Shown one piece after another: positions 33,603-48,971 of a stretch of 64,000 nucleotides of DNA. The stretch lies in assembly GCF_014859525.1 (NCBI RefSeq), contig NZ_JACUUB010000003.1, positions 39,790-103,789 on the forward strand, in the 5' to 3' direction. Position numbers and translations under genes: made by a program. Each line of letters starts with the position of its first letter. Position 1 is the stretch's first letter. The DNA is from Marinobacter sp. Its GTDB lineage: Bacteria > Pseudomonadota > Gammaproteobacteria > Pseudomonadales > Oleiphilaceae. Under the pieces are notes generated by a model. That model saw nothing but the letters and a program-made list of their open reading frames with translations. It made no database searches and had not been told where the DNA came from.

Positions 33603-33872
33603 ATGGACCAGAATCAAAAGTCAAAAACCGATCTCGACCGCGAAAGTCGCCGTTTTGCTGTCTCAGCTAACCGTGGCAACGCCAGCCATCGGGTGCGTTA
33701 TGTCGAATCCGGAGGTGCCGCGGTGGATAACGAAGAGTGCACATTCTGCCAAGCTGTGCCTGACCTGTCGGATGAGCAAAAAGTTAAAGCCACTCGAGTA
33801 AGTGGCCGCACGAACGCCAGCGAGTGCACTGATAGTGACGCTCAAACAAACGACGCTCATTTTGAGCGGTAG
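33603..33872 (+). CDS. Hypothetical small protein with CxxC
   Basis: AGGTGG upstream of ATG; CTFC motif; 3' end overlaps pxpC by 89 nt, so it is uncertain. Confidence 0.4.
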   Translation: MDQNQKSKTDLDRESRRFAVSANRGNASHRVRYVESGGAAVDNEECTFCQAVPDLSDEQKVKATRVSGRTNASECTDSDAQTNDAHFER

Positions 33873-34737
33873 CAAGATCCGTGATCTCAAAACGAACTCG
33901 GGTGCCGGGTAGCTGTTGGGCCAGAGCGCTGCAATCCAGGCTCGGAACAACTCCTGGCTTGGGGTACCCGCCAATCGTTTGACCGTCATTAAGCAGAACA
34001 ATCGGTTGTCCGTCGCCGGGAACCTGCACTGCGCCTTGCGCAATCCCCTCTGAGAGTATTCCCGGTGGTGGTGAATCCATTGCCGGCCCCTGCAAACGAA
34101 AGCCCATCCGGTCGGATTGATGACTGACGGTATAAGCGCTGTGAGTGAGCCGCAATATGTCGGAACGCGCAAACTGGTGGTACTGATAGCCGGGAATAAT
34201 CCGCAAACGGATGTCAGCAGACAACGCGGGACGGCACGCGATCGGCACCACGCGATCCGGCCGTGTATCATTTGATTTTAAAGCGGCGAGTTTGTCACCG
34301 GCCCTGATCGGGTCGAGTCCGGCGATGCGCTCCCTGATTACTACGGATCGACTGCCAAAGTGTAAGGGTGCGTCCAGTCCACCTGGTAGCGCAAGATAGA
34401 TCAATCGATGACTTGCTGAATGGCCGATGGTCAATTCATCGGCGTCGTTCAGGTTCAGGGTTTGCCACATCGATACCGGTTGACCATTAACGGCAACCGG
34501 TGCTTCAGCGCCGGTCAGTGCGATCTGCAACTTGCCCCTGGTAACCGCGTGAAAGCCCCCCAGTACGATTTCCAGACAGGCGGCGTTTCTTGGGTTGTCG
34601 AGTAATTTGTTAGCCCAGCTAAAGCTGCGTACATCGAGGGCACCGCCGCAAGCCAGGCCATGATGTCGGTAGCCCTGTCGCCCAGAATCCTGGACACTGC
34701 TGAGCACGCCTGGCCTGATGACCTCCAGCCAGCTCAT
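33784..34737 (-). CDS. pxpC: 5-oxoprolinase subunit C (biotin-dependent carboxyltransferase-like)
   Basis: SSVQDSGR.GYRHHG...GGALD, SDRMGFRL, GAVQVPGDGQPIVLL.D.QTIGGYPK. Confidence 0.88.
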   Translation of the reverse strand: MSWLEVIRPGVLSSVQDSGRQGYRHHGLACGGALDVRSFSWANKLLDNPRNAACLEIVLGGFHAVTRGKLQIALTGAEAPVAVNGQPVSMWQTLNLNDADELTIGHSASHRLIYLALPGGLDAPLHFGSRSVVIRERIAGLDPIRAGDKLAALKSNDTRPDRVVPIACRPALSADIRLRIIPGYQYHQFARSDILRLTHSAYTVSHQSDRMGFRLQGPAMDSPPPGILSEGIAQGAVQVPGDGQPIVLLNDGQTIGGYPKPGVVPSLDCSALAQQLPGTRVRFEITDLATAQNERRLFERHYQCTRWRSCGHLLEWL

Positions 34738-35432
34738 GGTAATCGTGTCTCGGTCAGCTTGCCCCCGGCGGCCAGAAAATCTTGCCGGCTAATGGCACAA
34801 AAGCGGACCCGATCGCCAACCCTGAGAAGCGATAGCGTGTCTGGATCAAACAGAGTGGTGGGGCAACAACCAATAATTTGCCAGCCGCCGGGAGATGCTT
34901 GCGGATAGACCGCCGTTTGTCGGTTTGCAATCCCGACACTGCCGGCGGGTACCTGTTTGCGCGGTGTTTGCTTGCGAGGTTTTGCAATCGCAGGGTCCAC
35001 TTCGCCCATAAAGGCAAAGCCGGGCGCAAATCCCAGGGCGTGAACCCGATACTCGATCGCGGTATGACGACGAATAATATCCAGCATATCCAGGCCAGTC
35101 TCTGCGGCTAACCACGCAAGATCTGGCCCTGATTCGATGCTGTAATAGACCGGAAGTTCAACAAGCTTGCCAGTTGGCGGCTGCTTGATGTCGGTTTGGA
35201 AGTCTTCAGTGCTCATGATGGTTTTGAGCCTGGAGGTTACGTCTCGAAAATCCGCTAACATGGGATCGTAGACCACGAGCAAGGTGGCGTAAGAGGGGAT
35301 GAGGTCTTGTAACCAGGGAAGCTTTGCGTCACGAAGGGATTGGCTGAGCCTGGCAATCCGGGCGGGCAAGGTGTCGTCGATGGCTTCCGCCAGAGTGATC
35401 AGTACTGCATCTTCCGACACCGGTTCGATCAT
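34734..35432 (-). CDS. pxpB: 5-oxoprolinase subunit B
   Basis: DLIPSYATLLV, GPDL, ALGFAPGFAF, VPAGSVGIA..QTAVYP..SPGGWQIIG. Confidence 0.9.
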   Translation of the reverse strand: MIEPVSEDAVLITLAEAIDDTLPARIARLSQSLRDAKLPWLQDLIPSYATLLVVYDPMLADFRDVTSRLKTIMSTEDFQTDIKQPPTGKLVELPVYYSIESGPDLAWLAAETGLDMLDIIRRHTAIEYRVHALGFAPGFAFMGEVDPAIAKPRKQTPRKQVPAGSVGIANRQTAVYPQASPGGWQIIGCCPTTLFDPDTLSLLRVGDRVRFCAISRQDFLAAGGKLTETRLP

Positions 35433-36169
35433 TATCCAGCGTTACCAAAGGCCCGACGGATTGCTTTAATGGCCGCTAGTGCTGCGGCGTTGTCGCCATG
35501 AACACACAGGCTGTCTGCGGGTAGCTCAAGCCAGTTACCGGTGGCACTGTATATGCCCCCTTGTTCAGCAAAGGACCGGGCCTGGCGGACAATGATTTCC
35601 GGGTCTTCGTGCACCGCACCGGCCTCGCGCCTGGAAACCAGCTGGCCATCGTCATCGTAGGCGCGGTCCGCAAAGGCTTCCAGCAGTAGAGGTATTCCAG
35701 CGTCTGCAGCCAACTGCTGATGGTCTCTGTAATGCCGTGTAACCGGGATCATCAAGGGCAGGTCCGACCGGAAGGTTCGGGTTGCGACCATCACGGCGCG
35801 CAGCAGATCTTTGTCCCGCATCATGTCGTTATTCAGGGCACCATGGGGTTTCACGTAGCGCAGGGTTAACCCTTCTTTCCGGCACATACCCTCCAGAGCT
35901 CCCAGTTGATAGAGCAGAAGCGCTTCAATTTCCTCTGGTGTGTGGGTAATAGAGCGACGACCGAACCCTGGAAGGTCGTGGTAGGAGGGGTGAGCGCCGA
36001 CCTCTACGTGGTGTTGGGCCGCCAAAGCAAGCGTCTGGCGTATAACCATAGGGTCTGCGGCGTGAAAGCCGCAGGCCACATTGGCCATATCAATCAGCGG
36101 CATGACCTGATCGTCCTGGCCCATCTGCCAGGCGCCGTAACTTTCACCCAGATCGCAGTTCAGTTTCAT
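35432..36169 (-). CDS. pxpA: 5-oxoprolinase subunit A (LamB/YcsF)
   Basis: LNCDLGESYG, NVACGFHAADP, GAHPSY.D..GFGRR, YVKPHGAL.N, EAFADRAY, CVHGDN. Confidence 0.93.
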   Translation of the reverse strand: MKLNCDLGESYGAWQMGQDDQVMPLIDMANVACGFHAADPMVIRQTLALAAQHHVEVGAHPSYHDLPGFGRRSITHTPEEIEALLLYQLGALEGMCRKEGLTLRYVKPHGALNNDMMRDKDLLRAVMVATRTFRSDLPLMIPVTRHYRDHQQLAADAGIPLLLEAFADRAYDDDGQLVSRREAGAVHEDPEIIVRQARSFAEQGGIYSATGNWLELPADSLCVHGDNAAALAAIKAIRRAFGNAG

Positions 36170-36184
36170 GCCGCCTAAAGCCCC

Positions 36185-37297
36185 TCAGATGTCGGTCCGG
36201 CCAGGGAAAGTTGCCTTTTTTCGTGCTTCGGCGCACTGCGCTCTGGCTGTAAGCTCGTCCGCGTCGTTCTTCGGTATCGCCCAGCCTTGCAGGTTGTCTT
36301 CAACCAGCTGCACCAAGGCTTCGATGTGACCGGGTGTTGCATTCAGGCATGGAATATAGCCAAAGGCTTCGCCTCCGGATTCGATAAAGTATTCCCGGTT
36401 TTCTTCGTTGATTTCCTCAATGGTTTCAAGGCAGTCTGAAGAAAAACCAGGGCAGAACACATCGATGGACTTTACGCCGTCACCGGGCAAAGACTTCAAG
36501 GTTTTGTCCGTGTAGGGCTGCAACCATTCCTCTCGGCCAAAGCGAGACTGGAAGGTGGTCATATAGTCGTCTGGTCCAAGCCCGAGGCGTTCTGCCAGGA
36601 GCCTTGATGTCTTGTGGCACTCGCAATGGTAGGGGTCACCTTTCAACAGATATTTTAGTGGGACACCGTGATAGGAAAGCACCAGTTTTTCATGACGACC
36701 GTGGTTGGCCCAGTGTGCTTCGATGTGCTGCGCCATAGCCTCGATGTAAGCCGGATAGTCATGGTAATGGGAGATAAACCGAAAATCAGGCAGCCAGCGG
36801 CGCTGGGCAAAGTCGTTTGAGATGGCGTCGAAGGTGGATGCGGTTGTGGAGGCGGAATAATGAGGGTACAAGGGCAAAACCAGTAACTTGCGAACGCCTT
36901 GATCCTGCATTTCATCCAGCACCCTTGCAATCGAGGGATTGCCGTAGCGCATGGCAAAGCCAACCACCACATTGCTTCCGTATTTGGCTTTGAGAGCCTC
37001 GCGAATGCCCTCCGCCTGTTTAGCGGTGTGAATGAGCAGTGGTGAGCCTTCGGGCTGCCAGACGCTGGCGTAGGCGGCAGCGCTCTTTTTGGGGCGAATT
37101 CTAAGAATAACGCCGTGCAGGATCAGCCACCAGATTGGGCGAGGCACTTCTACTACCCGTGGATCCCACAAAAATTCAGCCAGGTAGCGGCGCAGTGCCG
37201 ATGGGGTTGGCGCATCGGGTGTGCCCAAGTTGGTGACCAGAATGCCCAGGCGTTCGGGCTGGCTATGGCTGAAGTTATCGGTTCCGTTGTAGGGCAT
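36185..37297 (-). CDS. hemH: Ferrochelatase
   Basis: NLGTPDAP, AMRYGNPSI, LPLYPHYS, SYHGVP, FQSRFG..EWLQPYT, PGFSSDCLETIEE. Confidence 0.97.
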   Translation of the reverse strand: MPYNGTDNFSHSQPERLGILVTNLGTPDAPTPSALRRYLAEFLWDPRVVEVPRPIWWLILHGVILRIRPKKSAAAYASVWQPEGSPLLIHTAKQAEGIREALKAKYGSNVVVGFAMRYGNPSIARVLDEMQDQGVRKLLVLPLYPHYSASTTASTFDAISNDFAQRRWLPDFRFISHYHDYPAYIEAMAQHIEAHWANHGRHEKLVLSYHGVPLKYLLKGDPYHCECHKTSRLLAERLGLGPDDYMTTFQSRFGREEWLQPYTDKTLKSLPGDGVKSIDVFCPGFSSDCLETIEEINEENREYFIESGGEAFGYIPCLNATPGHIEALVQLVEDNLQGWAIPKNDADELTARAQCAEARKKATFPGRTDI

Positions 37298-37321
37298 GAA
37301 AACAATCCGGTGGTTGAGAGA

Positions 37322-37750
37322 TTAGCGCTTGCTGGCTTGTTGCATAAGGCGCGGTATGAGCCCAGTGATGTCATAACCCGCCTGCTGGGCTTTAGACAGT
37401 ATCTGTTGTGGTTCTTGCTCGCGGGCGCTGCTCAAGGACCATAATACGGTGCAGCGGGTACCTGAGCGGCAGAAGGCGAATACGGGCTTGGCGGCGTCGT
37501 GGATCATTGCACTAAAGTCGTCAACGTCAGCGTCGGTGATGTTGCCGGATTCTACGGGCAGGTATACCCAGGTCAGACCGTGCTCTGTTGCAGCGGCCTC
37601 GATATCGGCCATGGAGGGCTGCCCTGGTTCTTCCCGGTCTGGCCGGTTGGCAACCAGGGTTTTGAAACCCAGGCGCGCGATGTCTGCCACATCCTCGATA
37701 CTGATCTGCGGGGCGACGGAAATACTGTCATCGATCTTTCTGATATCCAC
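37322..37750 (-). CDS. TIGR01244-family sulfurtransferase (DUF442, phosphatase-like fold)
   Basis: SPQI-like VAPQI, ANRPDREEPGQP, PV.AFCRSGTRC; GTG start after GGAG. Confidence 0.88.
   Translation of the reverse strand: MDIRKIDDSISVAPQISIEDVADIARLGFKTLVANRPDREEPGQPSMADIEAAATEHGLTWVYLPVESGNITDADVDDFSAMIHDAAKPVFAFCRSGTRCTVLWSLSSAREQEPQQILSKAQQAGYDITGLIPRLMQQASKR
37479..37506 (-). promoter_or_regulatory. ECF11 (RpoE-ChrR)-type promoter inside the sulfurtransferase gene, directed at hemH
   Basis: TGATCC-acgacgccgccaagcc-CGTATT, i.e. TGATCC-N16-CGTAwT. Confidence 0.6.
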
Positions 37751-37838
37751 TGAGTGACTCCGATTAATTCAGGTGCCGGGCCCGCAGGCCCGGGCAAAGT
37801 GTAACCGCGACGTGTTAAACATGACGGCGTTTAGAGGC

Positions 37839-38270
37839 TCACGCGGCGGAAGCGGCCTTTTTGCGCTCGATGGCTTCAAAAAGAATCATACCCGCAACCA
37901 TGGAGCCAACAAACACCACCGCCTTGAATTCTCCGGCGCCCAACGCGACCAGTCCCGGTCCTGGGCAGAACCCTGCGATGCCCCAGCCGATACCAAACAT
38001 CAAACTACCAATCACCAGGCGCTTTTCAATCCGGTTATTGGTGGGCAGTTTCATCTCGAAACCAAGAAACGACAAGGTTCGCTTGCGAGCCAGCGCAAAC
38101 GCAAACACGCCAACCAGGATGGCACCGCCCATGACAAAGGCAAGGGACGGGTCCCACAGGCCGGCGATGTCCAGAAAACCAAGCACTTTCTCGGGATTGG
38201 CCATGCCAGAAACGATCAGGCCAAAGCCAAACAGCAGGCCGGCGAATAAGGATGCAAGGGAATATTTCAT
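37839..38270 (-). CDS. YeeE/YedE family sulfur-compound transporter subunit (PmpA/B-like)
   Basis: SGMANPEKVLGFLD..G.WDPSLAFVM, FGIGWGIAGFCPGP. Confidence 0.9.
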   Translation of the reverse strand: MKYSLASLFAGLLFGFGLIVSGMANPEKVLGFLDIAGLWDPSLAFVMGGAILVGVFAFALARKRTLSFLGFEMKLPTNNRIEKRLVIGSLMFGIGWGIAGFCPGPGLVALGAGEFKAVVFVGSMVAGMILFEAIERKKAASAA

Positions 38271-38274
38271 GGTA

Positions 38275-38712
38275 TCAGGCTCCGATCAGGTGGCGGATAA
38301 CGAAGACGGAAACAAAGCCCGCCGCCATAAAACTCAATGTAGCGACCAAAGAGCGTAAAGACAGGCGAGATAAACCACAGACACCGTGGCCACTGGTGCA
38401 GCCCGAGGCATAGCGTGTGCCGATGCCCACCAGCAAACCGGCGATGATCAGGGCAGGGTAGCCAGCATTAATTTCAATAGGCGGCAGCTCTGCCATTAGC
38501 ATCCATATTGCTGGAGCACCAATCAAACCCGCGAGGAAGGCCACGCGCCAGATGATATCGTGTTTTGTTGGGGTGAGCAGGCCGCCAAGAATGCCGCTTA
38601 TCCCGGCTATACGACCGTTCAGTAAGAGAAAACTGGCGGCAGCCAGGCCAATGAGAATGCCGCCGGCCAAGGCGGTACCGGGAGTGAACTGACTCCATGC
38701 GATATCAATCAT
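38275..38712 (-). CDS. YeeE/YedE family sulfur-compound transporter subunit (PmpA/B-like)
   Basis: GRIAGISG, GTRYASGCTSGHGVCGLSRLS.RS. Confidence 0.92.
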   Translation of the reverse strand: MIDIAWSQFTPGTALAGGILIGLAAASFLLLNGRIAGISGILGGLLTPTKHDIIWRVAFLAGLIGAPAIWMLMAELPPIEINAGYPALIIAGLLVGIGTRYASGCTSGHGVCGLSRLSLRSLVATLSFMAAGFVSVFVIRHLIGA

Positions 38713-38745
38713 TTGCAGTCTCCATAGGATGTAACACGAGGAATA

Positions 38746-38773
38746 AGCTTATAAGCAGGTGTGATAATATCAA
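38746..38773 (-). promoter_or_regulatory. Candidate sigma70 promoter of the YeeE pair
   Basis: TTGATA-N16-TAAGCT; the -10 overlaps the palindrome ATAAGCTTAT (38743-38752). Confidence 0.4.
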
Positions 38774-38880
38774 AAAAAGCCCGGCAAGGGATGCCGGGCA
38801 GAGGCGTGCGAGTAGTATCCATGAAAGACTTCCAGACAAACCGACATCAACGGGGATGCCGGTATCAGGAAGTATTGCCC
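38772..38880 (-). ncRNA. Candidate small RNA or attenuator leader (5' hairpin, single-stranded linker, terminator)
   Basis: Hairpin ACUUCC-GAU-ACCGGCAUC/GAUGUCGGU-GUC-GGAAGU (38873-38828), 28-nt linker, GCCCGGCA/UGCCGGGC stem plus U7; no upstream CDS on this strand for the terminator to serve; 5' end uncertain. Confidence 0.6.
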
Positions 38881-38996
38881 ATAATTTGGACAGTTCAAGT
38901 GAGAGCGGCTTTCGTTTGAAAACATTTTTTCATATACCATCAGCGTTTATACTGCGCCCTTTCCCTATGCGGTTTTCAGCGGGGTGATCAGGGGCA

Positions 38997-39025
38997 CTGA
39001 AATCCCGGTGTGGCTGTAATATAAT
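38997..39025 (+). promoter_or_regulatory. Candidate sigma70 promoter of the phasin gene
   Basis: CTGAAA-N17-TATAAT. Confidence 0.5.
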
Positions 39026-39064
39026 GGGAATCGAAGTTTCCCGCTTTGTTGCCAAGAGGTGTTC

Positions 39065-39484
39065 ATGTCTGACAGCGACGATAAACAACCAGAGAATGAT
39101 CCGCAATTGGCGGGTAAGATTAAAGACTCTGCCCGACAAATCTGGTTGGCCGGTCTTGGCGCTTTTACCAAGGCTGAGGAAGACACAGGCAAACTGTTTG
39201 ATCGACTGGTTCAGGAAGGAGAGCAACTCGAATCCCGCACCCGCGGTGTGGTAGAGAAGCAGATTCGAACGGTTGAAGACCGGGTTGGCGAGGTTAAGGA
39301 ACGGGCCACGGGAACCTGGGACCGGCTTGAACATATGTTCGACCAGCGTGTGTCTGGCGCCTTGAGGCGGTTGGGCATTCACCGGCGTGAAGAAATCGAA
39401 TCCCTGGAGCATCGCATTGAAGCGCTTGAGAGTGAACTTGTTCGCTTGCGGGGTGATGCACCGATCCATGATGAAGAAGAGTAG
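39065..39484 (+). CDS. Phasin-family (PhaF/PhaI-like) granule-associated protein
   Basis: SARQIWLAGLGAF.KA.E...KLF..LV.EGE, WDRLEHMFDQRV..AL.RLG; start ATG 39065 after AAGAGGT. Confidence 0.88.
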   Translation: MSDSDDKQPENDPQLAGKIKDSARQIWLAGLGAFTKAEEDTGKLFDRLVQEGEQLESRTRGVVEKQIRTVEDRVGEVKERATGTWDRLEHMFDQRVSGALRRLGIHRREEIESLEHRIEALESELVRLRGDAPIHDEEE

Positions 39485-41027: not shown

Positions 41028-41771
41028 TTACGGTGTCAGCACACAATCTGGGTAGCGGGATACATCATAGCGAATGTGAGCGATGTAGTTGTCATCGGCG
41101 TTTTTGCGAATGTTGGTCAGGCCCAGGTACTCGGTTAGCGCACCTTCCCGGTTATAACCAAGCACAATCGGATCTACCAGAAATCTCAGAACCAGGCTCG
41201 TAGGACGTATCCGGACCACCACATCGGAACCGATCTGACTATTTGATGTTGGCTCCAACACAAACCCATAGTGTTCGCCTCTTGTCGGGGCAAGAAAACG
41301 GAATTCTACAGATTCGCCCTGTTTTACCTTGTTCCAGTTGGCCCTCACGAGGTGGTCAAAGCCGGCGTCTACAACGAGGCGGTCATCGAAAGAAACCTTG
41401 TGAGACTCCGTTTTACCCGCTGGGCTTTGCCATTGAACCTTGAGCTGCTCTGGCCCTTGATAAGAGATGTTCAGGTGTTCATCGTAATCCGGTTGGCTGA
41501 AATCAACGGTGGGGCGCAAAGCGCCATCTTCATAGCGCAGGGCTTTGCTCGCAAAAGTGCTGCTATCCTGGTTTGCTCGGTAGTCTACGCTGTGTGTAAT
41601 GGGCTGGAACACACCCTCAGCACAATGGCCTTCCACCCTGTGAGATTCCAGGTACAGCAGGTTGCCTCTGTCGTCCTTGGCGGTACCGGTGAACTCAAAC
41701 GGACTTCCGAATACCATCGGAGCACTCAAGAGGACCAGTAATGCGCTCAGGGAGACTGACGGTCGAATCAT
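41028..41771 (-). CDS. Hypothetical secreted protein (last gene of the lipid-modification operon)
   Basis: Signal peptide-like N-terminus; beta-rich; VVDAGFD motif; ATGA coupling with DUF2878. Confidence 0.8.
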   Translation of the reverse strand: MIRPSVSLSALLVLLSAPMVFGSPFEFTGTAKDDRGNLLYLESHRVEGHCAEGVFQPITHSVDYRANQDSSTFASKALRYEDGALRPTVDFSQPDYDEHLNISYQGPEQLKVQWQSPAGKTESHKVSFDDRLVVDAGFDHLVRANWNKVKQGESVEFRFLAPTRGEHYGFVLEPTSNSQIGSDVVVRIRPTSLVLRFLVDPIVLGYNREGALTEYLGLTNIRKNADDNYIAHIRYDVSRYPDCVLTP

Positions 41772-42292
41772 GACTGTAACTCCGAGTACAGGCTATTGCG
41801 GATGAATAGCAGCAGAGGAAAAAGTACCAGCCATCCCACGGCCATGGCCGCTAGAGACACGCTGAGATTGGGTAAGGTGACGATGCCGAGCTTGCTGGCG
41901 GACCAGTATGCAAAAGGGCCGGCTATTGGTGCAAAGACATAGGGCAGCCATTTACGCTGCCCCATCCACCCCAGAGAGTGACAAATGGTGGTCATGAAGA
42001 TCGCCCAGATCGCAACCAGCCACGGCGGTGCAACGAGGACGCTATCAACACCGGAAATGCCAAGCACGCCTGTCTGAAACCAGAGGGTGTCCATAAGGCT
42101 ACCGAGCACGACGCCAAAGCCGATAAACTGCAGCTCTACAAAGCGCTTTTGGCTTACCAGCGCAAAATGAAGTGCTAAAAACACCAACACCAACCCTGCC
42201 GCCGCCAAACCGGGGGCTAGCACGCAAGTCAGCCAGCCGATCTGGAACAGAACAAAATTGATGACGTTGCGGCCGGTCTCTGAGGCGATCAT
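41768..42292 (-). CDS. DUF2878 family membrane protein
   Basis: NFVLFQIGWL.CV, PPWLVAIW..F, GPFAYW. Confidence 0.85.
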   Translation of the reverse strand: MIASETGRNVINFVLFQIGWLTCVLAPGLAAAGLVLVFLALHFALVSQKRFVELQFIGFGVVLGSLMDTLWFQTGVLGISGVDSVLVAPPWLVAIWAIFMTTICHSLGWMGQRKWLPYVFAPIAGPFAYWSASKLGIVTLPNLSVSLAAMAVGWLVLFPLLLFIRNSLYSELQS

Positions 42293-43563
42293 AGGCTGAG
42301 GATATTGGTACGTTTGTTAGCGGGTTTGGCCATCACAAGATGGGCCACACCGATGGCACGCTCGCTGAAGCCCGCCTCGCAATAGGCAAAGTAGAAATGC
42401 CACAGGCGCTGGAAAGCGTCGTCGTAGCCTTGCTTGGCCAAGGTGTCGCGGTTTGCCATGAACCGATCGCACCAGTCTCTGAGCGTTCGAGCATAATGGA
42501 AGCCGAAATCTTCTGCGTGCGTCAGAACTAGGTCGGATTCCCGACGCATTGAGGTGAGTATGGCACCAAAGGAGGGAATAAAACTCCCCGGGAAAATAAA
42601 GCGCTGAATGAAATCTACGTTCTTCAAAGCACGGTCATAACGCTGTTCTGGCATATTGATGGCCTGGATCAGCGCCAGTCCATCGGGTTTGAGAAGTTTA
42701 CTGATCTGTGACAGATAGCTGTCCAGAAACTGAGGCCCGACCGCTTCGATCATTTCGATGGAAACCAACTTGTCGAACTGCCCCTCAAGATCGCGGTAGT
42801 CATCAAATAACAGTGTAATCTGATCCTCAAGACCTTCCGACTGGACTCGTGCTCTGGCCAGTTCCAGTTGCTCTTTAGAGATGGTGGTGGTGGTTACATG
42901 GCAACCGTAGTATTTCGCAGCATGAATGGCAAAGCCGCCCCAGCCCGTGCCGATTTCGACCACCCGATCTTCGGGTTTCAGATCCAACTTCTTGCAAATG
43001 GTGTCGAGCTTGTGGATGGCAGCTTCGTTAAGATCTGCGTCTTCTCGCGGATAAATCGCAGACGAGTACATCATGGTTGGATCCAGAAACAACTCGAACA
43101 GATCATTGCCCAGATCATAGTGGGCACTGATGTTCTTGCGGGAGCCTTCTGGTGTGTTTCGATTCAGCCAGTGCAGAGCCTTCAGGGCGGGTTTACTGAC
43201 CCAACTGAATTTGTCTTCGAACGCGTTCATTGTCTCGATATTACGGGTAAAAAATCTCAGCAGAGCGGTCAGGTCGGGAGAGCTCCAATCGCCAGCCACG
43301 TAAGATTCTGCTGCGCCAACACTGCCGCCGGTTACCAGATCACGCCAGGTAGTGTGGTCGTGAATAATCAATTCTGCGGCGGGGAAAGCCGGATTGTCAT
43401 CGCCGAAGACCAAATCTTCAAAACCCGCCTCACGAACCACGAGCCTGCCGTGACCCAGCAAGGACAGCTGGTGGCAAACCAGGCGTCGCGACACGCGACT
43501 GAGCGCCGGAATAGTCGAGCCACTGGCGGTTTGGTGGTCAGTGGACGTGTTCAGGTTCTCCAT
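42289..43563 (-). CDS. cfa: Cfa-family fatty-acyl methyltransferase (UfaM-like)
   Basis: NISAHYDLGNDLFELFLDPTMMYS, VEIGTGWGG, SIEMIEAVG, FIQRFIFPG, YCEAGF. Confidence 0.92.
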   Translation of the reverse strand: MENLNTSTDHQTASGSTIPALSRVSRRLVCHQLSLLGHGRLVVREAGFEDLVFGDDNPAFPAAELIIHDHTTWRDLVTGGSVGAAESYVAGDWSSPDLTALLRFFTRNIETMNAFEDKFSWVSKPALKALHWLNRNTPEGSRKNISAHYDLGNDLFELFLDPTMMYSSAIYPREDADLNEAAIHKLDTICKKLDLKPEDRVVEIGTGWGGFAIHAAKYYGCHVTTTTISKEQLELARARVQSEGLEDQITLLFDDYRDLEGQFDKLVSIEMIEAVGPQFLDSYLSQISKLLKPDGLALIQAINMPEQRYDRALKNVDFIQRFIFPGSFIPSFGAILTSMRRESDLVLTHAEDFGFHYARTLRDWCDRFMANRDTLAKQGYDDAFQRLWHFYFAYCEAGFSERAIGVAHLVMAKPANKRTNILSL

Positions 43564-44450
43564 GAGCTTACCCTGCCTTCAAGTTCTGAATGTTCGTGAG
43601 TCGATGCCGGTGATTCGGTAATATCTACACCTTGATCTTCCGCCCCCTTGCGATACCCACGGCTGCTTTCAACGAGTTTGTCCGGGTTGGTATAGAAGGG
43701 CGCGCCTTTAATCTTCAGTTTTAGCGCATTCCAGTAAATGCCGGCTGTACCCTTGATGGTTTCCAGCGGAAACCGTCTCAGGCCTCTATGTAAAGTTTTA
43801 CGGTCAAAGGGTATGCGTTGGACTACCAGAGTGGCATCAAAATGTTTTTGTTGGCCCTGCTCAACATTCATGTGGATTCTCAACTGGGGCCCCCGGAAGC
43901 TGAACAGCCATTGATAGTGCTGATTCATTCCGTTGAAGGGAGAGACATGAAACCGCTTACTGAAGGCAAACCGTTCGGTGTGCCAGTGGTCAGGATCTGT
44001 CACTTTCGATCGACGGGTTTCCAGACAATAGACGTGGCGCTGCTTCCAGGGTGTGTTGGTGATTTGAGCAAGGATAACGCGCGGAACATCGCCATATTGC
44101 GGGCTCTGGCCCGGCTCGTAGCACAGATAGAAACTCACCGGATTAAACACGTAGCCAAGATAACGGGGATGAGTGATCAACTCGATGGGACCTTCCGGCG
44201 CCCAGCCTGTCGCACTTTTTACCCGGTTGTAGACCGCTTGGCGAAGGCTTGGTACTTCTGGATCAAGGTAATCCTTTCGGTACAGAGACATCCAGTTGAA
44301 GCGTTCGAGTGAGAAGAATGGGCTGGACCGGGTAATAGAAGACCACTCATCCAGATCCAGTGCTAACATGCCAATCTTGTAACTAAAGTCATGTAAAACC
44401 GGGATCTTGCGACGATGTCTTATAGTGCCTTCTAACCAGTCAGTTGCCAT
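43551..44450 (-). CDS. DUF1365 family protein (UfaO-like)
   Basis: G.IRHRR..P..H.FSY, LGYVFNPVSFY, ITNTPW, K.FHVSPF. Confidence 0.9.
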   Translation of the reverse strand: MATDWLEGTIRHRRKIPVLHDFSYKIGMLALDLDEWSSITRSSPFFSLERFNWMSLYRKDYLDPEVPSLRQAVYNRVKSATGWAPEGPIELITHPRYLGYVFNPVSFYLCYEPGQSPQYGDVPRVILAQITNTPWKQRHVYCLETRRSKVTDPDHWHTERFAFSKRFHVSPFNGMNQHYQWLFSFRGPQLRIHMNVEQGQQKHFDATLVVQRIPFDRKTLHRGLRRFPLETIKGTAGIYWNALKLKIKGAPFYTNPDKLVESSRGYRKGAEDQGVDITESPASTHEHSELEGRVSSWRT

Positions 44451-44452
44451 GA

Positions 44453-45718
44453 TCAGAGTTCCACACCAAAGGCCTTGGTGACTCGCAACGCACTTCGCAC
44501 GCCATCTTCATGAAATCCGTTAAACCAATACGCGCCGCAGAAGTGGGTCCGGTTACGATTGCCGATCTCGTCGTATCGCCCCTGCGCGGCGACGGCTGCC
44601 AGGGTAAACACCGGGTGATCATATTCAAACCGTTTGATGACTTTGTCGGGGGCAATGTCGTGGCTGCGGTTCAGGGTGACGCAGAAGGTCTCCGGGGCGT
44701 CATGGAAGTTCTGCAGAACGTTCATGTTGTAAGTAACCGATACTGGTTGGGTGCTGTGCTCAGGAATCATGTAGTTCCAGGCTGCCCAGGCCAGTTTGTT
44801 GGAAGGCAGCACGCTGGCGTCGGTGTGCAGTACCACGTCGTTTTTCTGGTATGGAATAGCCCCCAGAATCTGCAGTTCCTGATCAGTCGGGTCACTTAAC
44901 ATGGCAAGCGCCTGGTCGCTGTGACAGGCCAGAATAACCTGATCAAACTGGTGTGTTTGGTCATTGACGGTCAGGCTTACGCCGTCCTTGCTGCGTTTAA
45001 TGCCGGTAACCGGGCTATTCAGGTGCGTACGCTCACCCAGGCGTTCCATCATACGAGTGACGTAACTGGCAGACCCGCCCGAGATCACTCTCCAGGTTGG
45101 GCGGTCATCCACAGACAGCATGCCGTGGTTATTGAAGAACTGAAGGAAAAACCGTATCGGAAATTGCTCAAGGATGATTTCTGGAGCAGACCAGATCGCG
45201 GCGCCCATCGGTACAATGTAATTGTTTCTAAAGTAGCGGCTGTAGCGGTTACGGTTCAAGTATTCGCCCAGGGTTTCACCTTCCGGGATCTGACCACTGG
45301 CCAGATCTGTGCGACTTTCTTTGTTGAAGCGAAGAATCTCACGGATCATTTTCAGAAAACCGACGTTAAGCAGATTCTTGCGCTGGGCAAACAGCGTGTT
45401 AAGGCTGGTTCCATTGTACTGAAGACCAGACGAGTGGCAGTCCACACTGAAACTCATGCTGCTGACTTCAGAAGGCACGCCAAGTCGATCCATCAGCTTG
45501 ATAAAGTTCGGGTAAGTCCAGTCGTTGTAGACTATGAAACCGGTGTTTACCGGCCAGGTGCGGCCTCCAGCATCAACTTTTTCTGTATTGGTATGGCCGC
45601 CCGCGTAATCGCCTGCCTCAAAAACATGCACGTCATGGTGTTCGCTCAACAGCCATGCCGCTGTCAATCCGGAGACGCCGGCGCCAATCACAGCAATACG
45701 CTGACGATTCGGGTTCAT
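44453..45718 (-). CDS. FAD-dependent oxidoreductase, amine-oxidase family (UfaD-like)
   Basis: IAVIGAGVSGL, GGHTNT, VNTGFIVYN..TYPNF, FCGAYW..GFHEDG; start ATG 45718. Confidence 0.9.
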   Translation of the reverse strand: MNPNRQRIAVIGAGVSGLTAAWLLSEHHDVHVFEAGDYAGGHTNTEKVDAGGRTWPVNTGFIVYNDWTYPNFIKLMDRLGVPSEVSSMSFSVDCHSSGLQYNGTSLNTLFAQRKNLLNVGFLKMIREILRFNKESRTDLASGQIPEGETLGEYLNRNRYSRYFRNNYIVPMGAAIWSAPEIILEQFPIRFFLQFFNNHGMLSVDDRPTWRVISGGSASYVTRMMERLGERTHLNSPVTGIKRSKDGVSLTVNDQTHQFDQVILACHSDQALAMLSDPTDQELQILGAIPYQKNDVVLHTDASVLPSNKLAWAAWNYMIPEHSTQPVSVTYNMNVLQNFHDAPETFCVTLNRSHDIAPDKVIKRFEYDHPVFTLAAVAAQGRYDEIGNRNRTHFCGAYWFNGFHEDGVRSALRVTKAFGVEL

Positions 45719-45749
45719 GCAATTCTTTCCTGTATCTGGAGAGTTCGGT

Positions 45750-46532
45750 TTACGAGTTTTCGTTACGTGCCATGGAGGCCGCCATGCGATCAATAAGAGC
45801 TTGGGGCAGTGCCCCCAGGGCCTTTAGCGTCCAGGTAAAACGCCGGGGGAACGCGATTTCAGACTTACCTTTCTCCAGGCCTGTTCGGATTCGTGTTGCT
45901 GCGTCTTCCGAACTGATGATGAACGGCATTGGGAAATCATTGCGGTCGGTCAGAGGGGTTTTTACAAAGCCCGGAGAGACCACTACCACATCAATGCCTT
46001 CAGCGGCCAAGTCTGCTCGTAAGGCCTGGGCAAAATAGGTCAGGGCGGCTTTAGATGCACCGTAGCCCTCAGCCCGTGCAAACGGGAACCACCAGGCGGA
46101 AGAGCTGACGATCACCAGAGTTGCAGGCTTGCCTTTGGCCCGGGTGGCGCGCAGTGCCGGTAACGCAATATCGAGGCTGCGGGCGGTTCCAACCACGTTG
46201 GTGACCATGTTGGCCTCAATAATCTGACTATCATAGTTAGCGACATCAAGGTATTCGCAGGTGCCGGCGTTAAGAATGGCCATATCGAGGTCGCCAAAGT
46301 GATTCAGCGTACCTTTTATGCTTTCAAGATCGGCGTTACTGGTGGTGTCTGCGGCTGCCGACACCATCTTGCCAGGGTAATGAGAGGCCAGAGTTTCCAG
46401 CGCTTCAAGTCTACGGCCAGTAACGATCACGTTGTGACCATGTTTAGCCAGATCATGAGCGACGGCTTCGCCAATGCCCGAAGACGCCCCGGTTAGCCAT
46501 ATGTTGCTACTACGAGAAAGGCGTTTGCTCAT
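45750..46532 (-). CDS. Short-chain dehydrogenase/reductase
   Basis: WLTGASSGIG, LNAGTCEY, YGASKAA, SPGFVKTPLTD.N.F.MP. Confidence 0.92.
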   Translation of the reverse strand: MSKRLSRSSNIWLTGASSGIGEAVAHDLAKHGHNVIVTGRRLEALETLASHYPGKMVSAAADTTSNADLESIKGTLNHFGDLDMAILNAGTCEYLDVANYDSQIIEANMVTNVVGTARSLDIALPALRATRAKGKPATLVIVSSSAWWFPFARAEGYGASKAALTYFAQALRADLAAEGIDVVVVSPGFVKTPLTDRNDFPMPFIISSEDAATRIRTGLEKGKSEIAFPRRFTWTLKALGALPQALIDRMAASMARNENS

Positions 46533-46996
46533 CCAGCCTGCTCCTTAACCCAGCGAATGACACCACCCACCACCGGCAGGTTTTCATACAGAAGCTGGCC
46601 TGCGTCGAAATAGTCGCGGTGATAGCGAACTCGTCCATCACGGATTTCCAGATGGCTAATTCCTTCTACCTCTACTGTTTTACCGCCTTTGATCCGTTTA
46701 TGCTGCAATTCCATTACCCAGGGAATGGTGCACCAACCGCGCTGAACCACGGAAGAACCAAACCGAAACTGGCATCGGATTACATTGCCGTAGGCACCTG
46801 CAAAATAGTGTGTTAGCTCATCCAGCCCATTAACCTCTCCAAATGGATCCCGAAACTGGATGTCTTCTCCATAAACTTCTTGAAGCTTGCTCAGATTGCC
46901 TTTGTCCAATTGATTGAACAGACTGCAGAACCTCTCCAACACCAATGGAAGTGTTGAGTCGGATGTACCGATGTCAATGATAGAGGCGGTTGTCAT
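46529..46996 (-). CDS. Nuclear transport factor 2 / SnoaL-like protein
   Basis: Y..DI.FRDPF..V.G, HRDYFD.G.LLYE.LPVVG; start ATG 46996 overlapping the desaturase stop. Confidence 0.88.
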   Translation of the reverse strand: MTTASIIDIGTSDSTLPLVLERFCSLFNQLDKGNLSKLQEVYGEDIQFRDPFGEVNGLDELTHYFAGAYGNVIRCQFRFGSSVVQRGWCTIPWVMELQHKRIKGGKTVEVEGISHLEIRDGRVRYHRDYFDAGQLLYENLPVVGGVIRWVKEQAG

Positions 46997-47949
46997 TGGC
47001 GCTTCCTCCTCAGGTTGTCCAACTCGCGGGTTTCTTGCTGAATGTGAGCGGGTATCGGGTTCAGATCCCAGACGATGCCCAGTTTTGATAGCACCCAAAG
47101 CCCATACCAGGTGAGGTCTATTTCGTACCATCGAAAGCCTTGTCTAACAGACTGCGGCCAACGATGATGGTTGTTATGCCAGCCTTCGCCGAGCGTAATC
47201 AAGGCCAGCCAAACGTTATTTCGGCTATCATCGTCGGTATCAAAGCGACGTTTGCCCCAAACGTGAGACAGGGAATTGATCGAAACCGTGGCATGGAACA
47301 AAAATACCGTCGAAATGAAGAAGCCCCAGACCAGTAACTGAAAACCATTGGTTTCCAATCCGGGTGCCCATGCGGCCAGAGCTTCGCCGATTGCGTAAAT
47401 GAGTACTGCAAAGGCGGCCGGAACCAGTGAGTCAAACCGGTTGATGAAGCGCAACTCAGGGAATTTCAGCCAGTCACGTATCCGCCGTTGATCCATGGCA
47501 AAGCCTGCATCGCAGGTAAACCATCCTGCGTGAGACCACCAGAAGCCACCTTGATGGGGGGAGTGGAGGTCTTCTGGATCATCCGAGTGTTGGTGATGGT
47601 GCCTGTGATGAGCGGCCCACCAAAGCGGACCTCGCTGAGCCGCGCTTGCGCCAAGAACCGCAAAGAAGAACTGAGCTTTACGGCCGGTTTTAAATGTTTT
47701 ATGGGAGAAGTACCGGTGATAAAACCCGGTTATTGAAAACATCCGGATCACAAAAAAAACGATCGCAAATACGACGGCGAAGGTACTTACGCCGGTAAAG
47801 AAAGCTAACAGACAGGCAAGGTGTAGCGCGATAAACGGCAAAACCCTAACCACGTTGAACGACCTGGAACTGGTGTCCAGGTGATCTGTTCCGGCTTCGG
47901 AATCGAACCATCTCAGAATGTTTGTTAACCAGTAATTCATTTGGGCCAT
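46993..47949 (-). CDS. Acyl-CoA/acyl-lipid desaturase (delta-9 type)
   Basis: Three His boxes HRYFSH, HRHHH, HNNHH; GEGWHNNHH; start could be 47949 or 47940. Confidence 0.92.
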   Translation of the reverse strand: MAQMNYWLTNILRWFDSEAGTDHLDTSSRSFNVVRVLPFIALHLACLLAFFTGVSTFAVVFAIVFFVIRMFSITGFYHRYFSHKTFKTGRKAQFFFAVLGASAAQRGPLWWAAHHRHHHQHSDDPEDLHSPHQGGFWWSHAGWFTCDAGFAMDQRRIRDWLKFPELRFINRFDSLVPAAFAVLIYAIGEALAAWAPGLETNGFQLLVWGFFISTVFLFHATVSINSLSHVWGKRRFDTDDDSRNNVWLALITLGEGWHNNHHRWPQSVRQGFRWYEIDLTWYGLWVLSKLGIVWDLNPIPAHIQQETRELDNLRRKRQ

Positions 47950-47957
47950 ATAAAACC

Positions 47958-48971
47958 ATGCTTAAAGTGACATCAGACATCACATCAATACGCAATGTCG
48001 CGGTTATCGGTTCAGGTCTGGCGGGCCTTTCGTCAGCCATTATTCTTGGCCAGATGGGCCATAATGTCAGGGTGTTTGAAAAAAGTCGCGGTCCTGGCGG
48101 CCGAATGTCGTCGAAACGGGTCAGCGATGGGTCTGCTGACATCGGAGCGCAATATTTCACCGTCCGAAACCCGAACTTTCTCACCTTCTTACACCAGTAC
48201 GCTGGTGCTTCCACGTTTGATACGTGGTCAGCCCGGTTTGGGTTTCAAGATTCGGATAACATCTGGCAGCCGTTCCCGCAAGAGAACCGGTACGTGGGTG
48301 TTCCTCGGATGACCGCAATCACCCGTGCGCTCTCAGCCGGCATAGATTTGGTATCGGAAGTCCGTATCGAACGCCTGGTGCAAGCCGGTGAGCAGTGGCG
48401 GTTGGAATGCACAGAAGGGAAGAGCCACGGGCTGTTCGATCAGGTGGTGATAACTGCGCCACCGGCACAAGCTCAGGACATTTTGATGGGCAGCGGGTTG
48501 GCTGAACTGGCTGCAAAACTGGTATCGCCTGTCGAGCAGATTTTACCGTGCTGGGCGGTTGCTGCCCATTTTGCGCAACCGCCAACCGACCGATTTGACG
48601 CCATGCGACCAAATTCCGACACGCTCTACTGGGTGGCCAACAATTCTTCCAAACCGGGCCGTGACGGTTCTGGTCAGTGGTGGGTGCTGCATGCCACCCC
48701 GGAGTGGACAAAGGCTAATGTTGAAACAGCACCGGATGAGGTGTGCGCCGAATTGTTGAGGGAGTTCCGGTCTTTGACGGACCACACCGGTGACCCGACC
48801 GAAACTGTCGCACACCGTTGGCTGTATGCACGCTCGGCAGACGCTGACAATCCCGGCTACCTGCTGGATCAGAAAAAGCGCATTGGATTGGCCGGGGACT
48901 GGCTGGCGGGTGGTCGGGTTGAGGGCGCTTGGGAGAGCGCCACCAAACTGGCGGCAGCCATGCAGTCTTAA
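47958..48971 (+). CDS. NAD(P)/FAD-dependent oxidoreductase, renalase-like
   Basis: VAVIGSGLAG, FEKSRGPGGRMSSKR, DIGAQYFT, HRWLYA, GDWLAGGRVEGAW; start uncertain. Confidence 0.88.
   Translation: MLKVTSDITSIRNVAVIGSGLAGLSSAIILGQMGHNVRVFEKSRGPGGRMSSKRVSDGSADIGAQYFTVRNPNFLTFLHQYAGASTFDTWSARFGFQDSDNIWQPFPQENRYVGVPRMTAITRALSAGIDLVSEVRIERLVQAGEQWRLECTEGKSHGLFDQVVITAPPAQAQDILMGSGLAELAAKLVSPVEQILPCWAVAAHFAQPPTDRFDAMRPNSDTLYWVANNSSKPGRDGSGQWWVLHATPEWTKANVETAPDEVCAELLREFRSLTDHTGDPTETVAHRWLYARSADADNPGYLLDQKKRIGLAGDWLAGGRVEGAWESATKLAAAMQS
47987..48014 (-). promoter_or_regulatory. ECF11-type promoter inside the renalase gene, directed at the desaturase operon
   Basis: TGAACC-gataaccgcgacattg-CGTATT, one mismatch to TGATCC-N16-CGTAwT. 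Confidence 0.55.

Follow-up and report, generated by a model that had tools for sequence, protein, structure and literature searches.

When an exact match to a known promoter consensus lies within the coding sequence of an unrelated gene, is it a promoter and, if so, which protein reads it and which gene does it serve? This question is raised by a site in a Marinobacter genome, where the sequence TGATCC-N16-CGTATT is present on the minus strand within a gene for a sulfurtransferase-like protein and points toward hemH, the gene for ferrochelatase. The genome is a metagenome-assembled one of 3.23 Mb in 165 contigs, whose nearest named relative is M. halophilus (91% identity between the HemH proteins), and the stretch of it that was analysed, here called the window, is 64,000 nt long. 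As judged from sequence comparisons, the site is very probably a functional promoter of the ECF11 (RpoE-ChrR) type that drives hemH under photo-oxidative stress.

The putative promoter comprises a -35 element, TGATCC (37506-37501), a 16-nt spacer (37500-37485), and a -10 element, CGTATT (37484-37479), all of which lie on the same strand as hemH. It is contained within an open reading frame (ORF; 37322..37750, minus strand) for a 142-residue protein of the TIGR01244/BLH_phosphatase (DUF442) family of sulfurtransferase-like proteins (Pfam PF04273, 8e-35; NCBIfam TIGR01244, 160.8 bits with a cut-off of 85.85). The site spans the codons for Met82 Ile83 His84 ... Pro89 Val90 Phe91 of this host ORF, such that the -35 element is made up of A-TG ATC C-xx, that is, Met82, Ile83, and the first base of codon 84, and the CGTA core of the -10 element is made up of the third base of the Pro89 CCC codon and the GTA codon of Val90. 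Directly after it, at a distance of 2-10 codons, comes the CX5R loop of the host protein, AFCRSGTRC. When re-read, the motif, its strand, and its positions proved to be as given in the original prediction, as did the codons ATG ATC CAC ... CCC GTA TTC, with their GTA valine, of the sulfurtransferase gene. The distance to hemH, put there at about 180 nt, is 182 nt when counted from the -10 element to the hemH ATG. Transcription usually begins 5-8 nt downstream of a -10 element; by this distance, the predicted start would lie at 37471..37474 (minus strand), near 37473. A scan of positions 35300-39200 for sigma-70 promoters yielded no match at 37479-37506, so that housekeeping hexamers are absent from the site itself. 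A second sequence in the host gene, CTGACC-16-TAGAAT (37576-37549), was considered as a basal promoter for hemH and was rejected, as it is not conserved in the alignment of relatives.

The gene toward which the site points, hemH (36185..37297, minus strand; Pfam Ferrochelatase, 3.5e-117; TIGR00109, 320.7 bits), starts with an ATG at 37297, 24 nt after the stop codon of the host ORF, and is the sole ferrochelatase gene of the genome (one match in a whole-genome search). Two genes for YeeE/YedE-like half-transporters precede the sulfurtransferase gene on the same strand. A GC-rich hairpin, GCCCGGGCC-TGC-GGGCCCGGC, which is not followed by a U tract, is present at about 37775-37795 (minus strand), in the space that separates the sulfurtransferase gene from its yedE-like neighbour; the closest relatives (L007-L010) have a similar hairpin of different sequence at this place, and the structure may act as a partial terminator or as an element of RNA stability and so set sulfurtransferase-hemH apart from the transporter genes. 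Downstream of hemH, after 15 nt, lie pxpA, pxpB, and pxpC (33784..36169, minus strand; LamB_YcsF for pxpA), which encode the subunits of 5-oxoprolinase and which are probably co-transcribed with hemH in this genome. Throughout the genus, the DUF442 gene and hemH form a constant unit. Since pxpA follows hemH in just 20 of 65 loci, the idea that pxpABC is the conserved cargo of the promoter was rejected; hemH is the only gene that is constantly downstream of the site.

For a wider comparison, the hemH locus was taken from 36 congeners and from about 45 further Marinobacter genomes (with named records), giving an alignment of 30 sequences and a maximum-likelihood hemH tree of 65 distinct loci, on which changes were counted by parsimony. 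Within the alignment, ATGATCC and CCCGTA are kept in 26-27 of the 30 sequences, and the spacer and the flanking codons are variable. Codons 84-88, which make up the spacer, vary both in sequence and in the amino acid that they specify without a single insertion or deletion, and thus the spacer is fixed in length and free in sequence. The original prediction had named, as evidence against itself, the disappearance of the motif through synonymous changes in close relatives; when this was looked for, ATC, CCC, and GTA were found to be kept in 26-27 of the 30.

The genome encodes one pair of an ECF sigma and a ChrR-family anti-sigma. The anti-sigma (C77:44132-44758; TIGR02451, 151.5 bits with a cut-off of 124.5) has the ZAS motif HLDQCPHC and a ChrR cupin domain (Cupin_7), and its gene is overlapped by 4 nt by the sigma gene, whose product contains Sigma70_r2 and r4. 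A motif at the sigma's own operon is the usual sign of ECF autoregulation. Upstream of rpoE-chrR, GATCC-N16-CGTA followed by [A/C/T/G]A is present in 14 of 16 other Marinobacter genomes, 12 of these 14 having the full TGATCC, and the remaining 2 of the 16 have TGATCT. In the genome under study, the aligned rpoE-chrR promoter reads CAATCC-N16-CGTACA (L001:2821-2855, minus strand, on contig C77); a TGATCC is present 9 nt farther upstream of it, at a spacing of 25 nt that makes it non-functional. This deviation from the genus consensus is a caveat, leaving the exact preference of the sigma in this genome unproven. Between the ECF promoter and the start codon of the sigma gene, all 17 of 17 Marinobacter rpoE loci also have a strongly conserved block, ACTGACAA-N17-TAGAATGATGA (L001:2780-2815, minus strand, in this genome), which looks like a sigma-70 promoter (TGACAA/TAGAAT) for basal expression of the sigma and anti-sigma.

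The distribution of ChrR within the genus is only weakly informative as a test of the site, because almost all members of the genus have it. One genome (G030, locus L029; 95% complete) has neither ChrR nor an ECF11 motif upstream of hemH, and is the sole member of the genus, among those complete enough to judge, that has neither, which accords with control of the site by the ChrR-linked sigma. Another (G024, locus L017; 91% complete) keeps the motif at hemH, with no ChrR found and with the desaturase operon described below absent, a point against such control; these absences reflect either recent loss or gaps in the assembly. Two further genomes (G007 and G018) have ChrR and have lost the site within the ORF, with a new site at -81.

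The window also contains a second ECF11-type site, TGAACC-N16-CGTATT (47987..48014, minus strand), which differs from the first by one mismatch. It is present inside a divergent ORF for an FAD-oxidoreductase (47922-48971, plus strand) and is 38 nt upstream of an eight-gene operon (41028-47949, minus strand) that includes genes for a desaturase, SnoaL, SDR, an amine oxidase, DUF1365, a cyclopropane-fatty-acid-synthase-like methyltransferase (CMAS), DUF2878, and one further product. The set of SDR, amine oxidase, DUF1365, and cyclopropane-fatty-acid-synthase-like genes is the classical core of ChrR regulons. In 8 Marinobacter genomes, this one included, TGA[A/T]CC-N16-CGTA lies at -65 of the desaturase operon; in 14 of 16 other genomes, GCATCC/ACATCC-N17-CGTA is instead present farther upstream of it. 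The hemH gene and the desaturase-Cfa operon are about 10 kb apart on one contig both here (C91) and in many other genomes of the genus (G003, G013, G014, G022, and others), as would be expected if the genes for coping with photo-oxidative stress form a conserved neighbourhood. In other parts of the genome, motifs with one mismatch are found 34-201 nt upstream of genes at C96:15704 (+), C122:4854 (-), C158:21562 (+), C65:34887 (+), and C27:45110 (+). The candidate members of the regulon are a DASH cryptochrome (TIGR02765, 494 bits), whose gene has CGATCC-N16-CGTATG 34 nt upstream of it, a small lipoprotein, a DCC-type thiol-disulfide protein, a 720-residue OvoA-like sulfoxide synthase/methyltransferase, and a WrbA quinone oxidoreductase, of which the lipoprotein, DCC-type, and OvoA-like names are our own presumptive reading of the sequences.

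Conservation of a sequence is selection on the DNA and by itself does not name the protein that reads it. The conserved bipartite DNA might then be read by another ECF sigma of similar specificity, by a dimeric DNA-binding regulator, or at the level of the sulfurtransferase-hemH RNA, and in favour of such a reader are the CAATCC, rather than TGATCC, of this genome's own rpoE promoter, the presence elsewhere in the genome of weak ChrR-like cupin paralogues, and the fact that the site has been tied to a particular protein by deduction. However, two short blocks held at a fixed distance of 16 nt, with a spacer that is free to vary, are characteristic of recognition by a sigma factor, and the identical motif precedes rpoE-chrR across the genus as well as the classical ChrR-regulon operon. 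As for an element in the RNA, the two halves are not complementary, so that no helix is implied, and the predicted fold of the leader is no better than those of shuffled sequences (z = +1.16), for which reason a structured regulatory leader was dropped. A reader other than the ECF11 sigma is therefore unlikely.

Could the site instead be a functionless 12-nt pattern that has arisen by chance in the coding sequence near a plausible gene? It was found during a search for known motifs, and there is one exact copy of it in the 3.23-Mb genome, for which a hand calculation from the base composition gives about 0.26 expected copies (both strands), or about 0.005 per window; the value of 0.008 per 128 kb in the original prediction was thus of the right order of magnitude. 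Of 100 shuffles of the window, 12 contain one or more copies of the looser core, TGATCC-N16/17-CGTA. When up to one mismatch in the 12-nt pattern is allowed, the window contains 2 matches versus 0.19 expected, and none of 100 shuffles contained 2. For the single site, then, the count from one genome is suggestive and not decisive, since chance alone could produce it, and because of this, the case rests on the comparative evidence.

This evidence is of three kinds. First, the synonymous bases of the motif have changed far less than others. On the tree of 65 loci, the third positions of Pro89 and Val90 have undergone 4 and 6 changes, respectively, versus a median of about 22 for 47 comparable columns; the other 45 conserved columns that are at least four-fold degenerate have undergone 14-32 changes, except for R4 (6) and L91 (9). 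In the alignment, likewise, the lowest variability among 82 conserved degenerate codon columns, at those of at least three-fold degeneracy, is found at Val90 (GTA in 26 of 27; entropy 0.23), Ile83 (ATC in 26 of 27; 0.23), and Pro89 (CCC in 27 of 30; 0.56), the next four-fold site having an entropy of 1.05. Second, the two halves are lost jointly: the -35 element is kept in 55 of the 65 Marinobacter loci; 54 loci have the two halves intact, 10 have lost the two, 1 has an altered -10 element alone (a change of CGTA to CGTG), and none has lost the -35 element alone.

Third, equivalent sites are found upstream of hemH where the site within the ORF is missing. The tree indicates that the in-ORF site is absent from the Tamilnaduibacter outgroup and from a basal Marinobacter clade (M. 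daqiaonensis, L032, L112). At L032, L112, L120, and the Tamilnaduibacter locus L123, the intergenic spacer is longer and contains TGATCC-N16-CGTA at -66 to -85 of hemH, and at L070, TGATCT-N16-CGTATT is present at -66. Where a different gene is upstream of hemH (L066, L068, L069), CAATCT or TCATCC-N16-CGTA still precedes it. Among loci from other gammaproteobacterial genera, 5 of 33 have the motif with at most one mismatch no more than 150 nt upstream of hemH, versus an expectation of 0.15 drawn from the rest of the same 33 loci. Taken against these three lines of evidence, an origin of the site by chance is highly improbable.

The same data bear on whether the conservation merely reflects what the host protein needs, as in a constraint on the residues beside the CX5R loop or a preference for particular codons in translation, rather than a signal in the DNA. 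The motif is indeed only a few codons from the invariant loop sequence, and Met82, Ile83, Pro89, and Val90 are conserved residues. However, it is the synonymous bases that are constrained. Among the 65 loci, codon 89 is CCC in 59 and codon 90 is GTA in 56 of the 60 that specify valine there, although GTA is a minority codon that accounts for 18% of valine codons elsewhere in the host gene; the invariant neighbours A92 F93 C94 R95 S96 G97 T98 R99, by contrast, vary freely at their third positions. At codon 84, where the residue alternates among R, Q, and H, the first base, the C that completes TGATCC, is retained: on the tree, the first, second, and third bases of this codon have changed 3, 12, and 19 times. 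In loci without the -35 element, codon 84 specifies A, K, or E; there, codons 89-90 have drifted and read CCG/CCT/CCC followed by GTG, GTA, GCT, GCA, ATC, or ATA, but never CCC-GTA. From the sequence comparisons, then, the bases of the motif are under selection beyond the coding requirement, and there is very little likelihood that coding or translational constraint accounts for them.

The reading of the site as an ECF promoter, which was that of the original prediction, is thus supported by the sigma/ChrR pair, the motif at rpoE-chrR in other members of the genus, the synonymous conservation, and the precedent in Shewanella that is described below. Under this reading we infer that transcription starts near 37473 and depends on the sigma, and also which signal induces it and what purpose it serves in the cell, and the following scheme may be proposed. 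In the dark, or in unstressed cells, the sigma would be held by ChrR. Basal transcription of hemH would presumably come by read-through from the yeeE-yedE-sulfurtransferase genes, because the gap between the sulfurtransferase gene and hemH is 24 nt and there is no terminator-like site between the genes. Singlet oxygen or organic peroxide would inactivate ChrR, and the freed sigma would take RNA polymerase to TGATCC-N16-CGTATT. The resulting mRNA, begun at about 37473, would have the 3' third of the sulfurtransferase ORF as a leader of about 176 nt and would continue into hemH and probably, in this genome, into pxpABC. The added ferrochelatase would then turn protoporphyrin IX, a photosensitiser, into haem. 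The length of the leader counts against this reading, the intergenic versions of the promoter being 60-85 nt from the hemH ATG. That a genuine ECF11 promoter here should mainly yield something other than hemH mRNA, either a short RNA derived from the 3' end of the ORF, the leader being long enough to be processed, or a pxpABC transcript, given the 15 nt between hemH and pxpA, is scarcely credible in view of the lack of any terminator-like site between the in-ORF promoter and hemH in the scan of 35300-39200, the presence of pxpA downstream in a minority of the loci, and the relocated versions of the promoter that directly precede hemH.

The public sequencing runs that contain the window are all of metagenomic DNA. 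Those that cover the locus of a relative, L023, consist of two metatranscriptomes, which yielded three low-depth contigs and are too thin to count as evidence, and four unlabelled runs from 2025, which yielded deep contigs that span the region and are uninformative about 5' ends. One of the low-depth metatranscriptome contigs (L023:1343-1647, run X6) extends from the 3' end of the sulfurtransferase gene through the start of hemH. Its upstream end lies at an adapter, 37 nt past the predicted start, and is read as the end of a fragment and not as a start site.

How did the promoter come to lie within the coding sequence? On the tree, the in-ORF site appears a single time, at the base of the crown clade, and it was later lost at L115, in the M. 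litoralis group, and at L029. Two loci of the M. litoralis group, L009 and L010, have a new TGATCT-N16-CGTATG at -81, within the 3' end of the ORF. These observations can be accounted for by a history, in which we place moderate confidence, whereby the promoter of hemH has moved. An ancestral ECF11 promoter in the intergenic region, which would persist in Tamilnaduibacter and in the basal Marinobacter clade, would have given way, a single time and at the base of the crown clade, to a copy within the ORF, two codons from the catalytic loop. After this replacement, the spacer between the sulfurtransferase gene and hemH would have shrunk from about 85-100 nt to about 25-55 nt. The DNA would since have served a dual purpose, with residue 84 limited to R/Q/H and a rare valine codon fixed, until the site was lost in some lineages and re-invented at -81. 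If this history is correct, Marinobacter, in which the operon for fatty-acid modification, 10 kb away, has a similarly buried promoter, would be a natural system for the study of sigma-factor promoter turnover, and would also provide a measure of how far promoters constrain the proteins that they overlap.

If the site functions as proposed, it brings the only ferrochelatase of a widespread marine genus, an essential enzyme, into a photo-oxidative stress regulon controlled by ChrR, and extends a link known so far only for a spare paralogue in Shewanella. It would also support the idea that non-phototrophic bacteria of the surface ocean protect themselves, as singlet oxygen increases, from the protoporphyrin IX that they make. 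As a promoter embedded in coding sequence it would be unusually clean, since its cost to the host protein is visible as a fixed rare codon and a restricted residue, and since gain, loss, and relocation can be read on the species tree. For annotation, the consequence is practical: a prediction of the regulon that considers intergenic regions only would overlook the sequence of this genome that matches the consensus best.

Because the motif, the sigma group, and the class of target have all been published, the finding is a variation on a known theme, a new hemH member of a known regulon. The evidence for it is solid, and it neatly illustrates dual-use DNA and promoter turnover, but it would not surprise a specialist. 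The founding ECF11 system is the singlet-oxygen regulon of Sigma-E/ChrR in Rhodobacter (Cereibacter) sphaeroides (reviewed in PMC6852236). Marinobacter resembles it in having a zinc-binding ChrR with a C-terminal cupin, a sigma operon that in most of the genus appears to be autoregulated, and the core regulon of SDR, amine oxidase, DUF1365, and cyclopropane-fatty-acid-synthase-like genes. It differs in being a non-phototrophic gammaproteobacterium, and ferrochelatase is unmentioned in the review of the R. sphaeroides system (PMC6852236). Ferrochelatase is likewise unmentioned in a study of blue light in Vibrio cholerae, and none of the papers searched links Marinobacter to a ChrR anti-sigma. 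In Pseudomonas syringae pv. tomato DC3000, ChIP-seq of PSPTO_1043 gave the identical consensus, TGATCC-N16-CGTA, and a regulon that includes rpoE-chrR and a phrB/cfa-type cluster (PMC5507510), the counterpart of which in the window is at 41028-47949. However, hemH is absent from the targets listed for P. syringae, and the listed sites are upstream of genes, with none described as embedded in an ORF (PMC5507510).

The closest parallel is found in Shewanella oneidensis MR-1, where pgpD-hemH2 is transcribed in an RpoE2-dependent manner from TGATCC-N16-CGTAAT, with a mapped start (PMC4336711; PMC6664582). The mapped Shewanella starts lie just downstream of CGTAtt/CGTAat (PMC4336711), and the rationale given for hemH2 is the conversion of protoporphyrin IX to haem (PMC4336711; PMC6664582). 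The claim in the original prediction that the site points at a gene class known to be in this regulon is borne out by the RpoE2 dependence of hemH2 (PMC4336711), and this paralogue is the only ferrochelatase that is documented as a target. The two systems share the bipartite motif and its spacing, the rpoE2 promoter, TGATCC-N16-CGTATT, being identical to the Marinobacter site; they also share a ferrochelatase as the target and the logic of an oxidative or photo-oxidative response linked to protoporphyrin IX. The start and the RpoE2 dependence were measured in Shewanella, whereas we infer those of Marinobacter. The Shewanella target, hemH2, is an additional paralogue that the cell can dispense with and that follows a gene for glutathione peroxidase, whereas the target in Marinobacter is the sole hemH; the Shewanella promoter is intergenic, whereas that of Marinobacter is embedded in the coding sequence of an unrelated gene upstream and would give rise to a long leader. 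What is new in Marinobacter is thus a sole hemH as the target, a promoter within an ORF that has left a measurable imprint on it, and the relocation of this promoter within a genus.
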